Below are positions 2,987 to 53,046 of a DNA stretch of 64,000 bases, piece by piece. The position numbers and the translations under genes are program-made. Source of the DNA: Patescibacteria group bacterium (lineage in GTDB: Bacteria > Patescibacteriota > Patescibacteriia > JAXHNJ01); the NCBI GenBank assembly GCA_041649715.1, contig JBAZMP010000003.1:36155-100154 (forward strand). The letters run 5' to 3'. The notes below the pieces were generated by a model. That model searched no databases. It was not told where the DNA came from and worked only from the letters and a program-made list of their open reading frames with translations. Position 1 is the stretch's first letter. Every line of letters begins with the position of its first letter.

Positions 2987-3508
2987 TTAATGACTTTTTT
3001 CCTGGATCGCCTTGAGGACATAAACCAGCTTGTTCAAATTTCCTTTTAAAGTATTCACTAAACCGGTCACCGGGCTCTTGATGACGTAAACCAGCTTGTA
3101 CAGTAATTCTTCTTTACTCGGCAGCTTCGCCATCGCCAAGACCTGCTCTTTCCCAATAAGCTTGTTTTCAAAAATACCGCCGACCAACTTAAGATTTTCG
3201 TGGATTTTGGCGAATTCATAACACAATTTAGCCGGCATGACCTCGTCTTCCAGGCCGAACGCCAAAGCAAAGCCGCTCGTCAGTTCATCTAAATTTATGT
3301 CCATCTTTTTTTCCTTGAGGGCTTTTTTCAAAAGGGTTTTTTTGGCGACGAAATATTCCACCTTATTCTCCCGCAATGTTTTTCTCAATAGATTTATTTC
3401 ATTGACCTTGAGCTTCTCATAATTAACGAAAACCAGGGCTTTCATCGCCTCTAAGTCTTTGGCTAATTTCTTTATTTCCAGTTCTTTTTCCTGGCGTGTT
3501 TTTGGCAT
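2987..3508 (-). CDS. rplJ: 50S ribosomal protein L10.
   Basis: MPKTRQEKELEIKKL... is a typical L10 N-terminus, located immediately upstream of rplL. The track ORF starts at TTG 3532, but ATG 3508 is preferred. Confidence 0.9.
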   Translation of the reverse strand: MPKTRQEKELEIKKLAKDLEAMKALVFVNYEKLKVNEINLLRKTLRENKVEYFVAKKTLLKKALKEKKMDINLDELTSGFALAFGLEDEVMPAKLCYEFAKIHENLKLVGGIFENKLIGKEQVLAMAKLPSKEELLYKLVYVIKSPVTGLVNTLKGNLNKLVYVLKAIQEKSH

Positions 3509-3700
3509 AAAAAAGAGGTCTTGACACCGCAAGACCTAGACAAGCATGGAAGTTTAACTTCACGCTTCTGCCTCGGTAGGAGATTAAGCCCCATTGGGGC
3601 GCCTACGGTCTGCGGCCTAAATAATTTGTTAACTTATCCACATTATAACAGAGCTAAAAATAATGTCAAATATCCAAAAAAGAAAGGGCGGTAAAAAACC
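3509..3700 (-). promoter_or_regulatory. Putative rplJ (L10) leader region with a terminator/attenuator-like hairpin (aggtcttg-cggtgt-caagacct followed by T6) directly abutting the start codon.
   Basis: An 8-bp stem plus cttttttATG on the minus strand at 3509..3539, with further GC-rich hairpins at 3545..3620. L10 leaders acting by attenuation are established in Firmicutes. No SD is visible. Confidence 0.35.
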
Positions 3701-29075: not shown

Positions 29076-29318
29076 TCAATCATCAAGAAAAGGACAATAC
29101 GTGCCCCGCTTTTCTCCGCGGGCGCATCTGACTAGGGCCACGCCAGGCTTGATACAAATAAGCGGAATCGCCGCTTCAACCGGCCTCGGGACAGTTAAAA
29201 CTCGCCTGCCCCTTTCTTTTCTCGTCCGGCCGATCTCCTTGGCCTTGTAACCCATGTCACGCAGTGCTTTACGGACTTGCTTCTCATTCGCCCCCTTCTC
29301 AAGAATCACATCCATCAT
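29076..29318 (-). CDS. Small hypothetical protein (80 aa) with a C-terminal Cys cluster.
   Basis: Strong RBS (AAAGGAGGTT, 2-nt gap, ATG). No family recognised. Confidence 0.4.
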   Translation of the reverse strand: MMDVILEKGANEKQVRKALRDMGYKAKEIGRTRKERGRRVLTVPRPVEAAIPLICIKPGVALVRCARGEKRGTYCPFLDD

Positions 29319-29494
29319 AACCTCCTTTAGGTAACATTTTGTGCTCCCACCTTATCAAATAATAAAACGAGTGTCAATATCTAAATAATACAAAAAAACT
29401 ATCTTCCCTGGCCGGGGTAGCAAAGACGCTTGTCTTATTTTAGAGTAAAGACAAATCCCCTTGCTACCGTGCGTCAAAAAAGATAGTCCAAAAA

Positions 29495-29668
29495 TTAAAG
29501 ATCCGCCGGCTTAACCGTGCTTCTTTTATTTTCTTTGCAGCGTCTGCAAGCTTCATCAAGCAACATCACTACTTTCTTATCCAGGGCATCGATCAATTCA
29601 CCGGATGTGTGACAACCCTTGGTTTTAATCGTTTCTTTTACTTTTGAGGCGACAACGAGATTGGCCAT
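29495..29668 (-). CDS. 57-aa histone-fold-like small protein (DUF1931-like). Not in the supplied ORF track because it is under 60 aa.
   Basis: Manual translation gives MANLVVASKVKETIKTKGCHTSGELIDALDKKVVMLLDEACRRCKENKRSTVKPADL. The pattern (VSxDA..L.....L...A...A...GRKTVK..D-like: KRSTVKPADL) mirrors archaeal histone HMf and bacterial DUF1931 single histone folds. Preceded by a G-rich SD-like GGGGGTG. Confidence 0.45.
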   Translation of the reverse strand: MANLVVASKVKETIKTKGCHTSGELIDALDKKVVMLLDEACRRCKENKRSTVKPADL

Positions 29669-29793
29669 TTCTTACACCCCCTTTCTGTCCTAATTATAGC
29701 GTCTTAATAAATAAATTAGATTATGGGTAAAGAGAATAATCTCTTTATTTCCCTTAATTCTAGCATATATTGACAAATCAAGGCAAAACAGCT

Positions 29794-30987
29794 TCAGTCG
29801 CGAAAAAGAATGCTTTCTTTGGAATATATTTTTGTGGCGATAACCACGGAAAGAACGGCAAAAACCAGCAAACTGCCTAAAGTGGCGACAATATGCATAG
29901 AATCATAAACGCCCATTAAATTTTCCTTAAAGAGCAAAACAGCATTAACCACTGGAATAAAATAATAGGCGGTAATGGGTTTAAATCCCGGATATGAACC
30001 TAGCAGGGCTACCGGCAGCACCGTCGCGATATAAAAAGGCATGACATAATTTTGGGCCTCTTTGTAGCTTTTGGCGAAGATGGCGACAGCCAGAAGCAGA
30101 CCGGCGAACATGATGGATAAGATGATGCCGATACCAAGCATCAGAAAAACCGTGGAAGGAGAAATACTGAATTCAAAAGCGCCCACACTTTCTCCGAAAT
30201 TCGGCGGCCAGATTTTAAAAGCGGCGTACATGCTCCCGATGGACAAAACCACGGAAGTAATGGAGGCGGTTGCCACCGCTAAAAATTTCCCGGTGACAAT
30301 CTTAATTCTTGACAAAGGGGTCAGAAGCAAAGCCTCCAGGGTTTTCCGCTCTTTTTCCCCCGCGGAAATATCAATCGCAATATACATGCCGCCGATAAAA
30401 GTAAACAAGACGATAAACATGGGCAGCAATAACCCCAAGAAAAATCCCCCCTTCTCTTTTTCCGAAGCCAAATCTTCCGGCTTAACGGTAATACTCTGCA
30501 ATAAACTTGGATCCAGGCGGGCCTCTACGAGCTTTTGACTGGCTAAAGCTTGATTAAAAACCACAAGCAAGCTACTAATTTTGCTAAAAGCGGTGGTAGA
30601 TTTGGTCTCCGTGCTTTTCTGCATTACCGCAATTTCCACCGGTATACCCGCTTTTATTTTTTCCTCAAAATCAGCCGGCGGAGTGACAATCACCTGTATT
30701 TCTCCGGTGTTTAATTTCCCCTTTAAATCACCGCCCCCGGTCTTAATTTCCACTTTATCCTGCGCTTGCAAAAAATTCACCAGGGAGGGCGCTTTTTCCT
30801 GGTTTTCTATGGCCACGACCGCCACCTGCTTTTCCGCCGATTTAATCTGCTCTTGCGCAATTTTCATACTGCCGATCATCATCAAGGGCATAAAAACAAT
30901 CGGCATGACAATAGAAACCATCAAAGTCCTTCTGTCCCTGATCGTATCTTTTAATTCCTTTTTCCAAACCGATAATATTTGTCTCAT
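29794..30987 (-). CDS. ABC-2 family transporter permease (NatB-like).
   Basis: N-terminal TM, large extracytoplasmic domain, C-terminal 5-TM ABC-2 permease region. 4-nt overlap with the upstream ATPase gene. Confidence 0.7.
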   Translation of the reverse strand: MRQILSVWKKELKDTIRDRRTLMVSIVMPIVFMPLMMIGSMKIAQEQIKSAEKQVAVVAIENQEKAPSLVNFLQAQDKVEIKTGGGDLKGKLNTGEIQVIVTPPADFEEKIKAGIPVEIAVMQKSTETKSTTAFSKISSLLVVFNQALASQKLVEARLDPSLLQSITVKPEDLASEKEKGGFFLGLLLPMFIVLFTFIGGMYIAIDISAGEKERKTLEALLLTPLSRIKIVTGKFLAVATASITSVVLSIGSMYAAFKIWPPNFGESVGAFEFSISPSTVFLMLGIGIILSIMFAGLLLAVAIFAKSYKEAQNYVMPFYIATVLPVALLGSYPGFKPITAYYFIPVVNAVLLFKENLMGVYDSMHIVATLGSLLVFAVLSVVIATKIYSKESILFRD

Positions 30988-31856
30988 TTTTTAATTACAA
31001 ATTCGTAAATAAGGACAAAAACAATGATAATGACAAAAATAATTATCCTACCCAAAGAATTTCTTTTGCCGAAATATTTCTTGAAAAATGATTGCTGACC
31101 CAAATTTTCCGCCTTTTTTCTCTCTGGTTCATAATCGGTTTCTTCGCCGACCTGTTTCACAAAAGCCTCTTCCAAATCGCGAGCACCTGTTCTATTTTTT
31201 ATATTATTTATTGTATCCACGGCCAGTATTTTCCCTTTGTGCATGATGGCCACTCGGTCGCAGAGCTTTTCCGCGTTGTACATTTCATGGGTGGACAATA
31301 TGACCAACTTGCCCTCACTTTTCGCTTTCTTCATGAATTCAATCACGGTCCGCGAGGCCAGAACATCCAAGCCCGCGGTCGGCTCGTCAAAGATAATCAC
31401 GGCCGGATCGTGGATCACCGAGCGGGCAATGGCCACTTTCTGCTTCATGCCGGTGGAAAACTTGCCGGCCCGCCGGTCGGCAAAACTCCTCATATTTAAA
31501 ATTTCAATAAGATAATTTATTCTTTTTTCTAACACCTCATCTTTTAGGCCATACAATTCCCCGTAATATCGCAGATTCTCCCTGGCGGTAAAACGGTCGT
31601 AAAGACCAATGTCGGTGGTCAGCAATCCCAAAGAAGCCCGCACTTGTTCCGGCTGCTTCTTTATGTCAAAACCATTCACTTCAGCCGTGCCAGAAGTGGC
31701 CTGCAAAACCGTGGCCACAACCCTGATGGTTGTGGTCTTACCTGCCCCGTTGGGCCCCAGCAAACCAAAAATCTCGCCGTCCTTAGCCTCAAAACTGATA
31801 TTATCAACGGCGGTGAAATTTTTGAATTTTTTGGTGAGATTAACGACTTTAAGCAT
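30984..31856 (-). CDS. ABC transporter ATP-binding protein (NatA-like) with a short C-terminal hydrophobic tail.
   Basis: Walker A GPNGAGKTTT, signature LSGGQ-like FSTGMKQK, Walker B IIFDEPTAGLD. Confidence 0.85.
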   Translation of the reverse strand: MLKVVNLTKKFKNFTAVDNISFEAKDGEIFGLLGPNGAGKTTTIRVVATVLQATSGTAEVNGFDIKKQPEQVRASLGLLTTDIGLYDRFTARENLRYYGELYGLKDEVLEKRINYLIEILNMRSFADRRAGKFSTGMKQKVAIARSVIHDPAVIIFDEPTAGLDVLASRTVIEFMKKAKSEGKLVILSTHEMYNAEKLCDRVAIMHKGKILAVDTINNIKNRTGARDLEEAFVKQVGEETDYEPERKKAENLGQQSFFKKYFGKRNSLGRIIIFVIIIVFVLIYEFVIKK

Positions 31857-31860
31857 AAGA

Positions 31861-32670
31861 TTATTTCACGCAAACGTCCCTTCGGTTAAAATACCACAAA
31901 CCGGCTAAAGTGAAAACGACAAAAACGCCCCCAAAAACCAGGACATCGGTAAAAACAATCGGTTTTCCGGCCAGAATATCCCCGCCGCGGTAATAATAAA
32001 ACAAGGTGTAATGCTTCAGCCAGGATATCTTTTCCCAATACAAAGCGACAAAATTCATGATGTAAAAAGCCAAAGTCAGGCAGGCGCTCAACGCGACCAC
32101 CTTGCCTTTATTCGAGGAGATGGCGGAAAAGAAAAAAGAATATCCGAAAATCGCCAGACTGAAAAAAAATAATACTGTCATCGTATTGACTATCGCGCTC
32201 CAGTTTACGACAATCGCCTTGTCCCAAAGACTGGGCAGCCAAAAACCCAAAAGAGTCGCTCCTTCCAAAATTAAAATCGCGATAATAAAAACCAAAATGT
32301 ACGTTAGGGCGATTTTCAGCCGGCTGATGGGCCGAGCCAAAAGCAGTTCAATCGTCCCCTTTTCAATGCCTTCCGCGATCATCCGGGCGGCAAAATACGC
32401 AATAAAAAACAAAACCACGATAATCCACATCAGGTTTAAATATTCCATTCCGATGTAACTGGTAAAAGTGAATTTGCCGGTAGCATCCACTCCGAAGGCT
32501 TTCATAAAAGCCTCGGGAAACTGCTTGATATATTCTTCAAGATTTAACCCTGACTTGGCAAACATCGGGTATAGAAGAGCCATCAGGAGGCTGTAAATAA
32601 GCAAGCCAAGGCCGTAACCTATCAGACTCCTTTTGTTGTCTTTTATAACCTTAGTAAACAAATTGAACAT
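31861..32670 (-). CDS. ABC-2 type transporter permease.
   Basis: 6-TM hydrophobic protein immediately downstream of an ABC ATPase. Confidence 0.65.
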   Translation of the reverse strand: MFNLFTKVIKDNKRSLIGYGLGLLIYSLLMALLYPMFAKSGLNLEEYIKQFPEAFMKAFGVDATGKFTFTSYIGMEYLNLMWIIVVLFFIAYFAARMIAEGIEKGTIELLLARPISRLKIALTYILVFIIAILILEGATLLGFWLPSLWDKAIVVNWSAIVNTMTVLFFFSLAIFGYSFFFSAISSNKGKVVALSACLTLAFYIMNFVALYWEKISWLKHYTLFYYYRGGDILAGKPIVFTDVLVFGGVFVVFTLAGLWYFNRRDVCVK

Positions 32671-32673
32671 TTT

Positions 32674-33555
32674 TTATTCTCCTTGGTAATACTTTAAAAA
32701 TACTTCTTCCAAATTAGGCTCGTTAAAATGTACATCCGAGATATCGTACTGCCCCAGTATCTTTATAATCTGATTGACTTCTCCGGTCAGATAAAGCTGC
32801 AGATATTTTTCTTCCTGAAGCTTGATTTCCACCCCGGGCAGTTTAAAATCCTGCGGCCGATAAGCCTGCCGGAAAAAAATTTCCACGATCCTGGTCTTGG
32901 CCTGGGAAAGCTCTTCCACGCTTTTTAAGGCAATCAATTTCCCCTCCTTTAAGATCGCCACCCGGTCGCAGATTTTTTCCACCTCGGATAAAATATGGGA
33001 AGACATAAAAATTGTCGTTCCTTCTTTTATCATTTCTTGAATGATTTTGTTAAATTCAATCTGGATTAAAGGGTCTAGACCGCCCGTTGGCTCGTCTAAA
33101 ATCAAAAGTTTGGGTTTGCCGGATAAAGCCTGCAGCACCCCGATTTTTTGCCTGTTGCCCTTTGATAAATCGCTGACCCTTCTTTTCAAATCGATATCCA
33201 ATCTCTCCGTCAATTCTTTCACCCACTCTTTATTCAAGCCGCCATAAAAAGCAGCCAGGAATTTTGTCAGGTATTCGCCGGAATAACGGTCATATAATTT
33301 GACATCACCCGCCAGATACCCTACTTTCTTCATTATTTCTACCCGACTTTTTTGGCAGTCAAGACCAAAGACAGAAGCCCTTCCTTCCGTGGGACGGATA
33401 AAACCCATCAGCATTCTGATGGTGGTTGTTTTACCGGCGCCATTAGGCCCTAAAAAACCGAAGATCTCCCCTTCTTTTACCTCCAGGTTAAGGCCGTCAA
33501 CCGCCTTAATTTTGCCGCGATCAAAAGTCTTTGTTAAATTTTCGGTTTTAATCAT
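32674..33555 (-). CDS. ABC transporter ATP-binding protein.
   Basis: Walker A GPNGAGKTTT, signature LSKGNRQK, Walker B LILDEPTGGLD. Confidence 0.85.
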   Translation of the reverse strand: MIKTENLTKTFDRGKIKAVDGLNLEVKEGEIFGFLGPNGAGKTTTIRMLMGFIRPTEGRASVFGLDCQKSRVEIMKKVGYLAGDVKLYDRYSGEYLTKFLAAFYGGLNKEWVKELTERLDIDLKRRVSDLSKGNRQKIGVLQALSGKPKLLILDEPTGGLDPLIQIEFNKIIQEMIKEGTTIFMSSHILSEVEKICDRVAILKEGKLIALKSVEELSQAKTRIVEIFFRQAYRPQDFKLPGVEIKLQEEKYLQLYLTGEVNQIIKILGQYDISDVHFNEPNLEEVFLKYYQGE

Positions 33556-34705: not shown

Positions 34706-35704
34706 TTAATACCAGTCAATGTTGAGAGAAGCGGCGCCCATATCAACGTTCATCTCAATCTTTTTCGTGGTTTGATCATAATTCTCCGACTGGTAAGTAT
34801 TGTCGTCCAATTTCTCAAAATCGGAAAGATCCTTGCTGGATACGCCGGAGTCAATTTTAACTTTAGCGCCGACATCTTTGGGCAGTAAAATATCCGTGGA
34901 CGAAGCCCCGGTCTCAAGGGTAAAAGTAACATCTTCCACTAAATTGCCGAATTTGATCTCGGCGGAAGTGGCGCCCGAATTAATTTCAAGTTTTGAAAGC
35001 ATCACTTGAGAAAAATCCAAATTCATGTCCATCGCCCCCACGCCCAGGGTCAATTCCAAAGGCACTTTATCCGTCAGATTAACCGCCAGATCATTACGGC
35101 TTGAGCCGAACCAGTTTGACCAATGACGATTGGCTTTTGTGGTAAGGCTGTAAGTTAACTTCCCGCCCGTTGTCTCTTTTGTGGTGGTTAATTCCGTTAT
35201 ATTCGAGTCTAACTGCCCGGCAATGAAAAATTGGGAGCCGCCCTTGATGGTCAGATTGCCGGCGCCGGCGTCCAGAGTAACTTCACCGCTGGTTATCTCC
35301 GGAACTAAAGTTTCCGAAAACTCATAGGTCTTCACTTCCCGGTTGGTATCCGGCCAAAATATGGTGCTAAAGACAATGCCGCCCACGATCAGAATGACAA
35401 CTATCCCCCCGAAAATTGTTCCCATTATCCCCCGCCGAGTCAGCATGGATAAGGCAATAACGATAAGAATGACCGGCCAGAAACGCCAAATATTTTCCAT
35501 ATTGACGGAAAACCAGCCGAAATTATTGCCTAAAAAAGCGATGCCGGCAAAAAGCAGTATTAAGGCCCAGAAAAACCGGCCCATATCCCATCCCTTGCGT
35601 TTGTCATAATGGTGGTGATAATGAATTTCTTTTGGTTCGACTGACGGTTCTTCTTTTTTTACCTCGTTTTGTGTTTGATTTTGTTCTGTCTTTTGCTCTT
35701 CCAT
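34706..35704 (-). CDS. LiaF-like membrane protein (N-terminal DUF5668-like TM module plus C-terminal DUF4097/'toastrack' putative adhesin domain).
   Basis: His-rich N-terminus, LILLFAGIAFL...WPVILIVIALSMLTRR TM pair, then a beta-rich C-terminal domain. Confidence 0.55.
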   Translation of the reverse strand: MEEQKTEQNQTQNEVKKEEPSVEPKEIHYHHHYDKRKGWDMGRFFWALILLFAGIAFLGNNFGWFSVNMENIWRFWPVILIVIALSMLTRRGIMGTIFGGIVVILIVGGIVFSTIFWPDTNREVKTYEFSETLVPEITSGEVTLDAGAGNLTIKGGSQFFIAGQLDSNITELTTTKETTGGKLTYSLTTKANRHWSNWFGSSRNDLAVNLTDKVPLELTLGVGAMDMNLDFSQVMLSKLEINSGATSAEIKFGNLVEDVTFTLETGASSTDILLPKDVGAKVKIDSGVSSKDLSDFEKLDDNTYQSENYDQTTKKIEMNVDMGAASLNIDWY

Positions 35705-35888
35705 AAATTTATTTATTTATAATATATATTGTTCAAATAAATATCTGATTGCTTCCCGAAGAGGATATAATATTAATAATAGTCCGAATAATATCCCCTG
35801 TTTCTTGCTGATAACACCGTATATTACCAGGAATATATCAGTGATTAATAGAGAGGCAAAGGCAATAATAAACGTCCACATAAAAAGG

Positions 35889-36452
35889 CTATTTTCTTCG
35901 AAAAATCATAAAAAGAGCGATCGCAATCAAAATCAGCGGCCAGAGCTTCCAGGAACCGATCATGTTCGCGTAAAAAATCAGGGATAAAACCGTCAAAATT
36001 GTGGCCGGGATCAACAAAGGTTTCATCGCCCTTTGCGAACCGAAATAAGTGACAAAAAAAGCCAGGCCGGGAACCAAGATAAAAGTCGGCCACAAATACT
36101 CCATATATTGCCAGCTGGCCGAATTCATGATAAAGAAAAACAGCCCCAGGAAAGTAAGAATTGAACCGGGGATCAATATTCCATAAAGCTTACTTTTTTC
36201 TCCGGCCACGAAAAACCAGACGAAAAAAGCCAGGCCGGGGACCAAAACGAAAATCGGCCACCAGTACTCCCAGTTCCAATTAGGCAGAAAATTAGCCGCC
36301 AAAAAAGCGACGCCCAATATCAACAAAATCACGGCGGGAAAAACGGTCGCTTTTTTGCCTTTTGGTTCTTCTTTTGTATTATTCTGTTCTTCCATTTTAT
36401 TATTTAATAGTTGATAATTATATTTGACACTAGACACGAAGACACCCGACAC
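35889..36452 (-). CDS. Membrane protein with two DUF5668-like (LiaF/PspC C-terminal type) TM-hairpin modules.
   Basis: Repeats of the ...FLAANF...WxxWWPIFVLVPGLAFFV... module, ending LWPLILIAIALFMIFRRK. Confidence 0.5.
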   Translation of the reverse strand: MSGVFVSSVKYNYQLLNNKMEEQNNTKEEPKGKKATVFPAVILLILGVAFLAANFLPNWNWEYWWPIFVLVPGLAFFVWFFVAGEKSKLYGILIPGSILTFLGLFFFIMNSASWQYMEYLWPTFILVPGLAFFVTYFGSQRAMKPLLIPATILTVLSLIFYANMIGSWKLWPLILIAIALFMIFRRK

Positions 36453-36505
36453 AATAAATTTTAAATGCTATTCTTCATGTCTTTATGTCTTCTTGTCTTC
36501 AAGTC

Positions 36506-36712
36506 TTATTTTTTTCGGCGAAAAAGCATCACTAAAGCAATAACAATTAGGATCACCGGCCAAAGCTTGCCGATATCAAAAGAGGTGATGTAGTTTTCCA
36601 GAAGAAAGAATATACCGATAGCCAGCAGGATAAGGGCGCCGGTGATGTTACGTTTATCATTCTTATTTTCTTTAACCGGCTGATTATTCTCTGGCTTTTG
36701 TTCTTCATTCAT
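36506..36712 (-). CDS. Small membrane protein (68 aa) with a single DUF5668-like TM hairpin.
   Basis: ILLAIGIFFLLENY...KLWPVILIVIALVMLFRRKK; same C-terminal module as its three neighbours. Confidence 0.5.
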   Translation of the reverse strand: MNEEQKPENNQPVKENKNDKRNITGALILLAIGIFFLLENYITSFDIGKLWPVILIVIALVMLFRRKK

Positions 36713-36735
36713 AAATTTTATAATTATTTAATAAA

Positions 36736-37221
36736 TTAGCTTCGGCGCCTAAAAAGCATGACTAAGGCCATTAATATCAGTATTACCGGCCAAAGCTTGC
36801 CCCAGTTTAACCAGGTGGTAAAATTTGCCGCCAGGAAAAACACGCCGATAACCAGCAGGATGATCGCGGGCCAAGCCCGGCGTTCAATTCTCTTTTTTTC
36901 TTCGGGCGTGCAGCATTCCTCCTCTTTTTTTTCGTCTTTGCTGAAAGCTTCTTTTATTTCTTCCGCTTTGCCCTTCACCTCGCTGGCAAATTGATTCACC
37001 GCTTCTTTGCTGCCGGCTTTGACGGCCTCACCCTCGCCTGGGTTTTGCGGCACGACAATCCACAGAATAACATAGGCCAAAACTCCGGCGCCGCCGGCCA
37101 GGACGATAACCACGAAAATAATTCGGACCAAGGTTACATCCAGATCGAAATACTCGGCTAAACCGGCGCAGACGCCGGCGATAATCTTGTCTTTGTTAGA
37201 ACGATAAAGTTTCTTGTCCAT
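36736..37221 (-). CDS. PspC-domain envelope stress protein with a C-terminal DUF5668-like module.
   Basis: LYRSNKDKIIAGVCAGLAEYFDLDVTLVRIIFVV is the PspC domain signature; C-terminal ...KLWPVILILMALVMLFRRRS. Confidence 0.75.
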   Translation of the reverse strand: MDKKLYRSNKDKIIAGVCAGLAEYFDLDVTLVRIIFVVIVLAGGAGVLAYVILWIVVPQNPGEGEAVKAGSKEAVNQFASEVKGKAEEIKEAFSKDEKKEEECCTPEEKKRIERRAWPAIILLVIGVFFLAANFTTWLNWGKLWPVILILMALVMLFRRRS

Positions 37222-37379: not shown

Positions 37380-38513
37380 CTACTGCGTCGTCTTCTCAAA
37401 CCGGAAAGTCTTCCAGGCGATTAAAAAAGTCACCACAATCCAACCCCCAAGCATCAGTAATTGCATCTTGATATCGCCCAGACCGGCGTTATTATTCGCC
37501 ACATCCCTTAACGCTTCAATCAGGGGGGTTAAGGGCAGATATTTAGTCACCTGGTAGACGGCCGGGGGTAAAACTTCAGAGGGATAAAAAACGCCGGACA
37601 AAAACATCATGGGCATAAAAACCGCCTGGGCCATGGCGCCAGCCGCGTTCACGGTCTTGGCGATTCCGGCGATAGTAAAGCCGATACTCAAGAAAATCAA
37701 ACTGCCCAAAAGAGACAATCCATACATCAAAAATATATTGCCGTAAAAATGCACATTATAGGCAAATTTTGCCACTCCCACAATCAGGCTTAACTGAATA
37801 ACCGCCAGAATCAAGTAGGAAAAAACCTGGGCTACCAGAAAATCGCGAACCTTCAAGGGGGTGGCCGTCAGCCTTTTAAGCAGCTTCTGTTCCCTGTATT
37901 TGACGATCTCCGAAGAAATGCCGATGATGGCGGCCGACATCACGGCCATGGCCATAATGCCCGGGGTAAGCATGTCAAGATACGAAATTTCCTTGGCCTT
38001 TAAACTCTCCGCTTTCATCACAAAACTTTTTGAAACACCGGCCAACTGAAAATTCACTTCGTCGATAAACTGGTTCAAGGTGCTTAATATAATGGAATTG
38101 GTCTGGACATTAGCCTCGTTGTAATAAACCTGTATATCGGTCGGAGTGGGCAAGGCCTGTGACGGGACAGCCTTAACATTAACCGCTATTTCCGGCGCTT
38201 TAAAGTTTTCCGGGATAACAATAACAAAATCCAGATCGCCCTGTTCCAATACTTTTTTCGCTTCATCAATGTTTGTATACTGGCTTTCTATCTGGAAAAA
38301 TTCAATCTTTTTCAAACCGTCGGCAAACTGGGCCGAAACCGGCGAATTGGCTTTATCAATCAGCGCCACTTTAGAGTGACCGATGTCATTAAAATTAAAA
38401 AGGCCGAAAATAACGATAAACATGGTCGGAAAAAGCAGGGTCCAAAACAAAGCCTGCTTGTCCCGAAAAGTCATTTTCAAATTGGCAACTAGCAATTTTC
38501 CGATAGTCTTCAT
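37380..38513 (-). CDS. ABC-2 family transporter permease.
   Basis: N-terminal TM, extracytoplasmic domain, 5 C-terminal TMs. 1-nt gap to the upstream ATPase gene. Confidence 0.7.
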   Translation of the reverse strand: MKTIGKLLVANLKMTFRDKQALFWTLLFPTMFIVIFGLFNFNDIGHSKVALIDKANSPVSAQFADGLKKIEFFQIESQYTNIDEAKKVLEQGDLDFVIVIPENFKAPEIAVNVKAVPSQALPTPTDIQVYYNEANVQTNSIILSTLNQFIDEVNFQLAGVSKSFVMKAESLKAKEISYLDMLTPGIMAMAVMSAAIIGISSEIVKYREQKLLKRLTATPLKVRDFLVAQVFSYLILAVIQLSLIVGVAKFAYNVHFYGNIFLMYGLSLLGSLIFLSIGFTIAGIAKTVNAAGAMAQAVFMPMMFLSGVFYPSEVLPPAVYQVTKYLPLTPLIEALRDVANNNAGLGDIKMQLLMLGGWIVVTFLIAWKTFRFEKTTQ

Positions 38514-38514
38514 A

Positions 38515-39435
38515 TTATTCCCTTAATTTTTTGCCGGTTAGTTCCAAAAAAACATCCTCCAGGTTGGCGTGCAATACTTCTTCATCCTGTATTTTGAATC
38601 TGTCTTTTTGCGCCAGGGCGATGATTTTCGGCAGAATCTCCGATCCGCGGGTAACCTTTAAGCTGTAAGAATGGTTCGGACCCTTATTCACTTCAAACAC
38701 GCCGGGAATTTCATTTATGTTTTCCAGACAAACTTCGCAATCAGTAGAAAAATTGATGACTGACGAAGCTTTTAGATTATGAATTAAGTTGACCGGCGTA
38801 TCCATGGCGGCAATCTTGCCTAAATCCATGATCGCCACCCGATCGCAAAGAACTTGCGCTTCCTCCATATAATGGGTGGTTAAAACAATGGTCTTTCCCC
38901 GGCTATTTATCTGCCGAATAAAATCCCAAATATTGTGTCTGGCTTGCGGATCAAGACCGGTGGTCGGTTCGTCCAAAAAGACGATTTCCGGATCATTGAC
39001 CAGAGTGGCGCAAATGGAAAAACGCTGTTTCTGGCCACCCGAGAGCTGACGAACCAATGATTTCTTTTTTTCGGTCAAACCGACGATTGAAAGCAATTTA
39101 TCTGCGTCCGCTTTCAAACCATAAAAAGAACCGAAGAGTTCCAGTATTTCCTTCAAGTTTAAATTATCAAAATAGGAAGAAGCCTGCAGCTGGACCCCGA
39201 TTTTTGACTTAACTCCGTCTAAATATTCATGCGTATCCATATCCAGGACATAGGTCTTGCCGGAGGTAGGTTTTTGAATCCCTTCAATAATTTCAAGACA
39301 AGTGGTTTTGCCGGCTCCATTAGGACCCAAGATGCCAAAAATTTCTCCTTTGCTTACGTCAAAGGAAATATTATCCACCGCGATCAAATCGCCGAACTTC
39401 TTGGTTAAATTTTCCACCCTGATGACTTTTGGCAT
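38515..39435 (-). CDS. ABC transporter ATP-binding protein (DrrA-like with C-terminal extension).
   Basis: Walker A GPNGAGKTT, signature LSGGQKQR, Walker B VFLDEPTTGLD. Confidence 0.85.
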   Translation of the reverse strand: MPKVIRVENLTKKFGDLIAVDNISFDVSKGEIFGILGPNGAGKTTCLEIIEGIQKPTSGKTYVLDMDTHEYLDGVKSKIGVQLQASSYFDNLNLKEILELFGSFYGLKADADKLLSIVGLTEKKKSLVRQLSGGQKQRFSICATLVNDPEIVFLDEPTTGLDPQARHNIWDFIRQINSRGKTIVLTTHYMEEAQVLCDRVAIMDLGKIAAMDTPVNLIHNLKASSVINFSTDCEVCLENINEIPGVFEVNKGPNHSYSLKVTRGSEILPKIIALAQKDRFKIQDEEVLHANLEDVFLELTGKKLRE

Positions 39436-52973: not shown

Positions 52974-53046
52974 CGGGGTATGGCCTAATTGGCAAGGCGC
53001 ACGCTTCGGGTGCGTGAGATTCTGGGTTCAACTCCCAGTACCCCGA
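52974..53046 (+). tRNA. tRNA-Pro (anticodon CGG).
   Basis: Manual cloverleaf: 7-bp acceptor with C1-G72, D-arm with G18G19, anticodon stem cacgc/gcgtg with loop ttCGGgt (U33, G37), 5-nt variable loop, T-arm ctggg-TTCAACT-cccag, A73. CCA is not encoded. Confidence 0.85.

Follow-up and report, generated by a model that had tools for sequence, protein, structure and literature searches.

The closest described systems are three prokaryotic histones of known structure. HLp of Leptospira perolatii (PDB 9QT0, 9QT1 and 9QT2) is a tetrameric face-to-face (FtF) histone that wraps ~60 bp of DNA and reorganizes the nucleoid of Escherichia coli (Hu et al., Nat Commun, 2025, PMC12701072), and its orthologue in L. 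interrogans, LA_2458, is essential and highly abundant (PMC12701072; PMC11390915). HTkC (TK1040) of Thermococcus kodakarensis is an archaeal FtF histone (PDB 9F2C; Schwab et al., Nat Commun, 2024, PMC11390915), and HBb (Bd0055) of Bdellovibrio bacteriovorus (PDB 8FVX, 8CMP and 9EZZ) is a dimeric protein that bends DNA (Hocher et al., 2023; Hu et al., 2024). Bacterial histones were characterized only between 2023 and 2025, HBb first and then HLp, and their known hosts belong to a few phyla. In the alpha3-truncated histones, alpha3 is 3 to 4 residues long and alpha2 is 4 to 5 residues shorter than in the nucleosomal histones, whose own features are an alpha3 of ~10 residues, the longer alpha2, a four-helix-bundle tetramer interface and the formation of hypernucleosomes (PMC12701072; PMC11390915).

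The sequence logo of the FtF histones has five hallmarks, R48, N52, R54, T56 and D61 (Schwab et al., 2024, PMC11390915), which are equivalent to R49, N53, R55, T57 and D62 of HLp (PMC12701072). In the logo numbering, R48 and N52 make the contact between dimers and are missing from the bacterial dimer histones, loop L2 is shaped by the RD clamp, made up of R54 and D61, and T56 contacts DNA (PMC11390915). In the FtF structures, the interface arginine contacts the C-terminal residue or its carboxylate in the opposing dimer, which in HLp is F63 (PMC12701072; PMC11390915). The residues of HLp found in contact with DNA in the crystals are A13, S14, K15, K17, K21, T27, G29, T56 and T57 (PMC12701072). 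A basic N-terminal tail is common in bacterial FtF histones (PMC11390915).

A Conserved 57-Codon Gene in a Patescibacterium

The window analyzed here is the whole stretch of 64,000 nucleotides from a Patescibacteria group bacterium, and a 57-codon ORF on its minus strand is a genuine, strongly conserved gene, far more than a chance ORF. Its translation, MANLVVASKVKETIKTKGCHTSGELIDALDKKVVMLLDEACRRCKENKRSTVKPADL*, is exactly the peptide quoted in the initial annotation. According to the list of ORFs, it cannot be extended in frame, and the opposite strand has no ORF of at least 40 aa that overlaps it. The product has a predicted mass of 6.3 kDa and a pI of 9.2. The gene had been described as unannotated, which applies only to a track with a 60-aa cutoff: the exact protein is already called as a gene on a public 235 kb metagenome contig and is found in GenBank as MFA5070575.1, a hypothetical protein of Patescibacteria group bacterium.

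An orthologue is located in a second Patescibacteria MAG (GCA_034520665.1; locus L001), in which the order of genes for ABC ATPase, ABC-2 permease, histone, GcpE/IspG, Fpg, DUF212 and BacA is kept. Between the window and L001 the histone shows 77% identity, and no other gene of this syntenic block is as well conserved, the six neighboring genes with which it was compared ranging from 48 to 71% (GcpE 71%, ABC proteins 68–69%, BacA 57%, Fpg 53% and DUF212 48%). The two histone genes differ at 11, 7 and 33 sites in the first, second and third codon positions, respectively, with a pN of 0.146 and a pS of 0.84 that is saturated, which indicates strong purifying selection. The GC and GC3 contents of the histone gene are like those of its neighbors. 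Because its identity is the highest of the block and its composition resembles that of the genes around it, the gene looks native, vertically inherited and strongly constrained, and not like a recent import.

Homology and Predicted Fold

When the single sequence was searched against the PDB, HLp (9qt0) was matched with an E-value of 1e-13 over residues 3–56, in which 54 residues are aligned free of gaps at 52% identity, followed by HBb (8fvx/8cmp) at ~5e-5 and HTkC (9f2c) at 7e-4; nucleosomal histones were not detected in this single-sequence search. A family profile built on an alignment of 121 sequences matched HLp at 1.2e-27, HBb at 1e-13 and HTkC at 1.5e-11, and the nucleosomal histones only at ~0.03–0.15 (0.15 for HMfA). 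The same alignment was used for a single-chain AlphaFold2 model (mean pLDDT 80.2), one of the checks that had been suggested for this ORF, and the model is a histone fold in which alpha1 spans residues 7–16, loop L1 17–24, alpha2 25–46, loop L2 47–53 and a single-turn alpha3 54–56. An alpha2 of 22 residues and an alpha3 of three residues make this the predicted fold of an alpha3-truncated histone. HLp (9qt1_A) is ranked at the top by Foldseek with a TM-score of 0.96 and an rmsd of 0.7 Å, and HTkC (0.91), HBb (0.88) and nucleosomal histones (~0.6–0.75) rank next. By sequence and by model, the ORF product is homologous to HLp, HBb and HTkC, and its predicted monomer fold matches that of HLp.

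The Pfam models barely see this protein. With the single sequence, CBFD_NFYB_HMF (PF00808) reaches 16.8 bits against a cutoff of 21.4 (E=0.0083, residues 27–57), the Histone model 14.4 bits, which is below its gathering score, and DUF1931 (PF09123) 13.7 bits against a cutoff of 21.8 (E=0.074, 34 of 138 profile positions). All three histone models of Pfam are therefore below their gathering thresholds, and they cover only the C-terminal half of the protein; no NCBIfam model matched the single sequence. The initial annotation held that the lack of a significant profile hit would speak against a histone fold, and Pfam taken alone narrowly gives that outcome, but the PDB sequence search and the family profiles overturn it.

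Hallmark Residues and Class of the Protein

In the gap-free alignment, each position of the patescibacterial protein equals the HLp position minus six, and the FtF hallmarks are all present as R43, N47, R49, T51 and D56, which are invariant across the 121 relatives. R49-x-T51-x4-D56 has the right spacing for the RD clamp loop, RxTxxxxD, of histones; the stretch concerned, KRSTVKPAD, is the C-terminal GRKTVKxxD-like motif pointed out initially. R43 and N47 correspond to the dimer-dimer residues R49 and N53 of HLp. The chain ends with L57, one residue past D56, as it does in 121 of 121 relatives, and this exact chain end is consistent with the published contact between the carboxylate and the interface arginine. 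Eight of the nine DNA-contacting residues of HLp are identical and the ninth is conservatively replaced (T56 to S50), while the alpha1 lysines K9, K11 and K15 are conserved in the family.

Taken together, the sequence and the model identify the protein as an alpha3-truncated FtF bacterial histone, a class first defined by its torus-shaped homotetramer, which for this protein is predicted from the conserved interface residues only. The initial view of a bacterial single histone-fold protein that is likely to serve in the nucleoid agrees with the homology to three solved prokaryotic histones and with a model that superposes on HLp, the nucleoid role being the part that is deduced. The name "DUF1931-like" given at the same time is replaced by the FtF class. 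Because of the hallmarks, the fold and the thresholds, the HBb-type, DUF1931 and nucleosomal classes are rejected; in the case of the nucleosomal or CBFD_NFYB_HMF class, the bit score falls short of the cutoff and alpha3 has three residues. A metal or disulfide site formed by C19, H20, C41 and C44 was also considered and rejected, because family members differ freely at these positions, where the residues do not occur together in any consistent way.

HLp is the described system that the protein resembles most. Both share the layout of alpha1, L1, alpha2, L2 and a single-turn alpha3, the arginine, asparagine and arginine of the tetramer interface, the RD clamp, an L2 loop of N-K-R-x-T-V and the end of the chain one residue past the aspartate. 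They differ in that three residues precede the conserved core in the patescibacterial protein and approximately seven disordered residues do so in HLp. Two of the six named tetramer-interface residues of HLp are replaced (S52 to E46 and T61 to A55), both at the periphery of the interface, as are a leucine of the dimer core (L47 to C41) and M26 (to H20). The patescibacterial protein has three cysteines, which are variable across the family. The hosts also differ, a Patescibacterium in one case and a spirochaete in the other, and SMC, MAP and DUF350, the neighborhood of the Leptospira histone (PMC12701072), are absent here, where the neighbors are an ABC-2 transporter and ispG/fpg.

The likeness to HTkC consists of the alpha3-truncated fold, the hallmarks R48, N52, R54, T56 and D61 and the absence of a tail, which is shared by most archaeal FtF histones. 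HTkC is only ~33% identical, carries two inserted residues in L1, reads G-R-K-T in the loop where the patescibacterial protein has K-R-S-T, and coexists with dominant nucleosomal histones in T. kodakarensis. The nucleosomal archaeal histones HMfA and HMfB share the histone fold and the RxTxxxxD loop with a weak sequence signal.

Expression Signals and Neighboring Genes

The features of the locus are listed in Table 1. The candidate promoter is of sigma-70 type and reaches into the end of the ABC-2 permease gene upstream. Both of its hexamers and the TG are kept at loci L001 and L002, where the surrounding intergenic DNA has diverged, and the element may function as a promoter. The equivalent Shine-Dalgarno site, AAAGGAGGTG, is conserved at both loci. 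Downstream of the gene, the composite stem-loop has a folding energy of -40.8 kcal/mol (z = -6.24), and none of 200 shuffled sequences was as stable. Its inner stem, TAGCAAGG...CTTTGCTA, is identical at L001 and L002, and its outer stem differs there on both sides in a compensatory manner (ACTATCTT/AAGATAGT vs. CCTACC/GGTAGG). The motif occurs once in the window and is confined to close relatives; a plain small terminator is found instead at a more distant Patescibacteria locus, L004. The stem-loop matched no Rfam family at the gathering threshold and, when the threshold was permissive, gave only a chance-level match (E=0.8). Its role may go no further than termination, or it may serve as an mRNA-stabilizing or sRNA element. 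With these signals on both sides, the histone gene is probably transcribed as its own unit.

Table 1. Positions of the histone gene, its putative expression signals and other features in the window and at related loci.
Feature	Position	Strand	Remarks
Histone CDS	29495..29668	-	57 aa plus stop; predicted alpha3-truncated, face-to-face-type bacterial histone
Candidate histone promoter	29757..29786	-	-35 TTGCCT, 18-nt spacer, extended -10 TG-n-TAGAAT; consensus scan
Shine-Dalgarno-like site	29675..29684	-	AAAGGGGGTG, 6 nt before ATG; read from sequence
Long composite stem-loop, then seven T	29392..29489	-	Putative intrinsic terminator; would give the histone transcript a structured 3' end
Counterparts of the 3' stem-loop	L001 10180-10290; L002 440-550		
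80-aa basic ORF	29076-29318	-	Directly downstream of the histone gene; strong AAAGGAGG site; called in public assemblies
Three ABC ATPase and ABC-2 permease sets	within 29794-33555, 37380-39435	-	Flank the LiaF/LiaI/PspC cluster
Three LiaF/LiaI/PspC-domain membrane proteins	34706-37221	-	Envelope-stress type
Unusual fusion protein, 673 aa	40488-42509	-	Weak nucleoside 2-deoxyribosyltransferase-like N-terminal region and polyprenyl synthetase domain
Ribosomal protein L10 leader	3501-3633	-	Rfam RF00557, 60.3 bits
tRNA gene	52974-53046	+	Rfam
Histone-deacetylase-family gene (PF00850)	L001 5352-6380		About 3.6-5 kb upstream of the L001 histone gene
Y1 transposase (PF01797)	L001 9003-9539		Between the ABC-2 permease and histone genes; absent from the window

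The 80-aa ORF next to the histone gene has no significant Pfam or NCBIfam match and was rejected as a conserved partner, as it is non-homologous to the 69-aa gene found in that place at L001 (E=0.33). A link between the histone and the histone-deacetylase-family gene of L001 was treated as a coincidence, since PF00850 has no counterpart in the window or at the other fetched loci. Envelope-related genes are densely grouped immediately upstream of the histone gene. The L10 leader and one tRNA are the only Rfam matches at the gathering threshold in the window.

Proposed Mechanism and Alternatives

Based on the homology with HLp and HTkC, we propose that the protein is probably a minimal, tail-less FtF histone that is an orthologue-level relative of HLp, is native to a Patescibacteria (CPR) genome, is expressed from its own transcription unit and acts by an HLp-like mechanism. 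The histone-fold handshake would join two chains head-to-tail by way of their alpha2 helices, and a torus-shaped tetramer would arise when two such dimers close face to face, R43 and N47 of one chain then contacting R49 and the L57 carboxylate of a chain in the opposite dimer. The backbone of DNA would be contacted without sequence specificity by the N-terminus of alpha1 (A7, S8 and K9), by K11 and K15 and by the L1 and L2 loops (T21, G23, S50 and T51). Approximately 60 bp would be wrapped round the tetramer, and the nucleoid would be compacted as a result. The assembly of dimers and tetramers, the binding and wrapping of DNA and a nucleoid-associated role are thus all predictions by analogy with these two histones. 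The conserved contact residues in particular suggest that the protein may bind DNA non-specifically and wrap ~50–60 bp of it, although the affinity could be changed because the basic N-terminal tail is missing.

The same interface residues bear on whether the protein is instead a "bacterial dimer" histone of the HBb/Bd0055 type, which would stay a dimer and bend DNA sharply as HU and IHF do. HBb is a significant homologue (E=5e-5; TM 0.88) and an alpha3-truncated singlet, and it has the alpha1 S-K-V-K motif and the RD clamp in common with the patescibacterial protein. However, the dimer histones lack R48 and N52 (PMC11390915), and HBb has S and D in the places where the patescibacterial protein has R43 and N47, which do not vary among the 121 relatives. 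HBb carries a C-terminal extension (IVIDHL) past the aspartate, while in each of the 121 family members the chain has a single residue beyond it; HBb remains dimeric and bends DNA, which is not wrapped round it. By E-value the patescibacterial protein is eight orders of magnitude nearer to HLp than to HBb, and it groups with HLp in a rough neighbor-joining tree. We therefore consider an HBb-type protein improbable.

It has been cautioned that not every prokaryotic histone-fold protein need be a global organizer of the genome (Schwab et al., 2024, PMC11390915), and the fold could have been recruited to another job, as a specific regulator or a protein-protein adaptor like eukaryotic NF-Y/TAF, in which case the DNA contacts would be vestigial or sequence-specific. 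Some relatives are indeed labeled "NFYB/HAP3 family transcription factor subunit," though this is an automatic name. What makes such a recruitment very improbable is the near-complete retention of the DNA-backbone contacts of HLp in a basic protein that has no extra domain and no conserved adjoining partner gene, the small downstream ORFs of the window and L001 being non-homologous; in addition, no other gene of its block is as conserved, and a strong Shine-Dalgarno site, an extended -10 and a strong terminator are in keeping with high expression of a structural protein. The remaining alternative, a protein of the DUF1931 family like Aq_328 of Aquifex that possibly does not bind DNA, takes up the name given in the initial annotation. 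This name is understandable because the PDB entry of HLp was automatically named "DUF1931 domain-containing protein," and a DUF1931 match does exist, as described above, while 12 of the 121 relatives reach an E-value of 0.01 or better with the DUF1931 model. The match is some eight bits below the gathering threshold and aligns about a quarter of the profile. Moreover, DUF1931 proteins are pseudodimers with two folds per chain whose CLANS cluster lies well apart from the FtF singlets (PMC12701072), and the single fold of 57 aa found here contrasts with their two folds in a chain of ~110–140 aa. The Pfam threshold and the architecture effectively refute this alternative, and the HLp-like FtF histone is the reading that we retain.

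Distribution of the Family and a Possible Chromatin Role

A word-index search with the single protein retrieved seven close homologues and gave a misleading impression of rarity, as a search of the same kind with the profile retrieved 499 and an exhaustive search found 889 clusters at 50% identity (E <= 1e-3). The taxon-labeled relatives belong to Patescibacteria (67–77% identity), Andersenbacteria, Planctomycetota (~50–55%), Actinomycetota, Myxococcota and Bdellovibrionales, and many belong to DPANN archaea, including Iainarchaeota, Micrarchaeota and Woesearchaeota. In the rough neighbor-joining tree, which was built from 57 columns and carries no support values, the protein is found with other Patescibacteria, beside HLp and Andersenbacteria. 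The N-K-R-x-T-V loop is common to Patescibacteria, HLp and Andersenbacteria, and the DPANN group has N-G-R-K-T-V. PF00808 is reached at an E-value of 0.01 or better by only 26 of the 121 relatives, and it is because Pfam barely sees the family that the GenBank entry reads "hypothetical protein." The locus illustrates an annotation gap, in which no Pfam model captures the family, GenBank gives no better name and cutoffs for short ORFs drop the gene.

The three key papers name, in their main texts, Spirochaetota, Planctomycetota, Bdellovibrionota and Myxococcota as hosts of bacterial histones and leave the CPR unmentioned (PMC12701072; PMC11390915; Hocher et al., 2023). There is no mention of the CPR in the supplements of Schwab et al. 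(2024) and Hu et al. (2025), and no paper combining histones with Patescibacteria/CPR was found in our search of the literature. A supplementary table of Hocher et al. (2023) lists, undiscussed, singlet histone-fold proteins of Candidatus Andersenbacteria and of Patescibacteria group bacterium UBA6539. The occurrence of such proteins in the CPR is therefore already catalogued and is unstudied, and the locus adds a member to a known histone family; it represents neither a new kind of protein nor a new mechanism. What it offers is an apparently bona fide and vertically inherited FtF histone in an ultra-small, uncultured Patescibacterium, under tighter constraint than the housekeeping IspG. At 57 residues and tail-less, it is about the smallest natural version of a (predicted) tetramer-forming histone and, for that reason, a convenient construct for asking what suffices for the wrapping of DNA.

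That the protein is a principal chromatin protein of its lineage, as in Leptospira, in which HU is missing and the histone is essential, we regard as possible but doubtful. The native gene, its conservation above the rest of the block and the strong expression signals are compatible with such a role, as is the result that no HU gene was found by tblastn, with E. coli HupA and B. subtilis HBsu queries, in the 64 kb window, which is a fraction of the genome, or at the fetched loci. If the protein were abundant or HU absent, it would bear on how DNA is organized in CPR bacteria with tiny genomes. If it were a principal chromatin protein, some ultra-small, episymbiotic CPR bacteria would rely on histone tetramers, perhaps instead of HU, to package genomes of ~1 Mb, and the nearness of the CPR histones to the FtF histones of Leptospira, Planctomycetota and DPANN archaea would point to an exchange of chromatin proteins among co-habiting lineages.

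The top matches of the exhaustive search include proteins of a different architecture. P0121–P0135, P0138 and P0141 are ~118–150 aa long and contain two tandem FtF-like histone folds with the R...N.R.T....D signature in each half, which makes them natural "pseudodimers" of the alpha3-truncated/FtF type that are distinct from DUF1931. Two doublets, P0132 and P0152, have hydrophobic, signal-peptide-like N-termini (MRHLAISLALVLFASATSFAAGA... and MKQFVFLIILIVGFGVTSAAWAG..., respectively), which would be odd for a DNA-binding histone.
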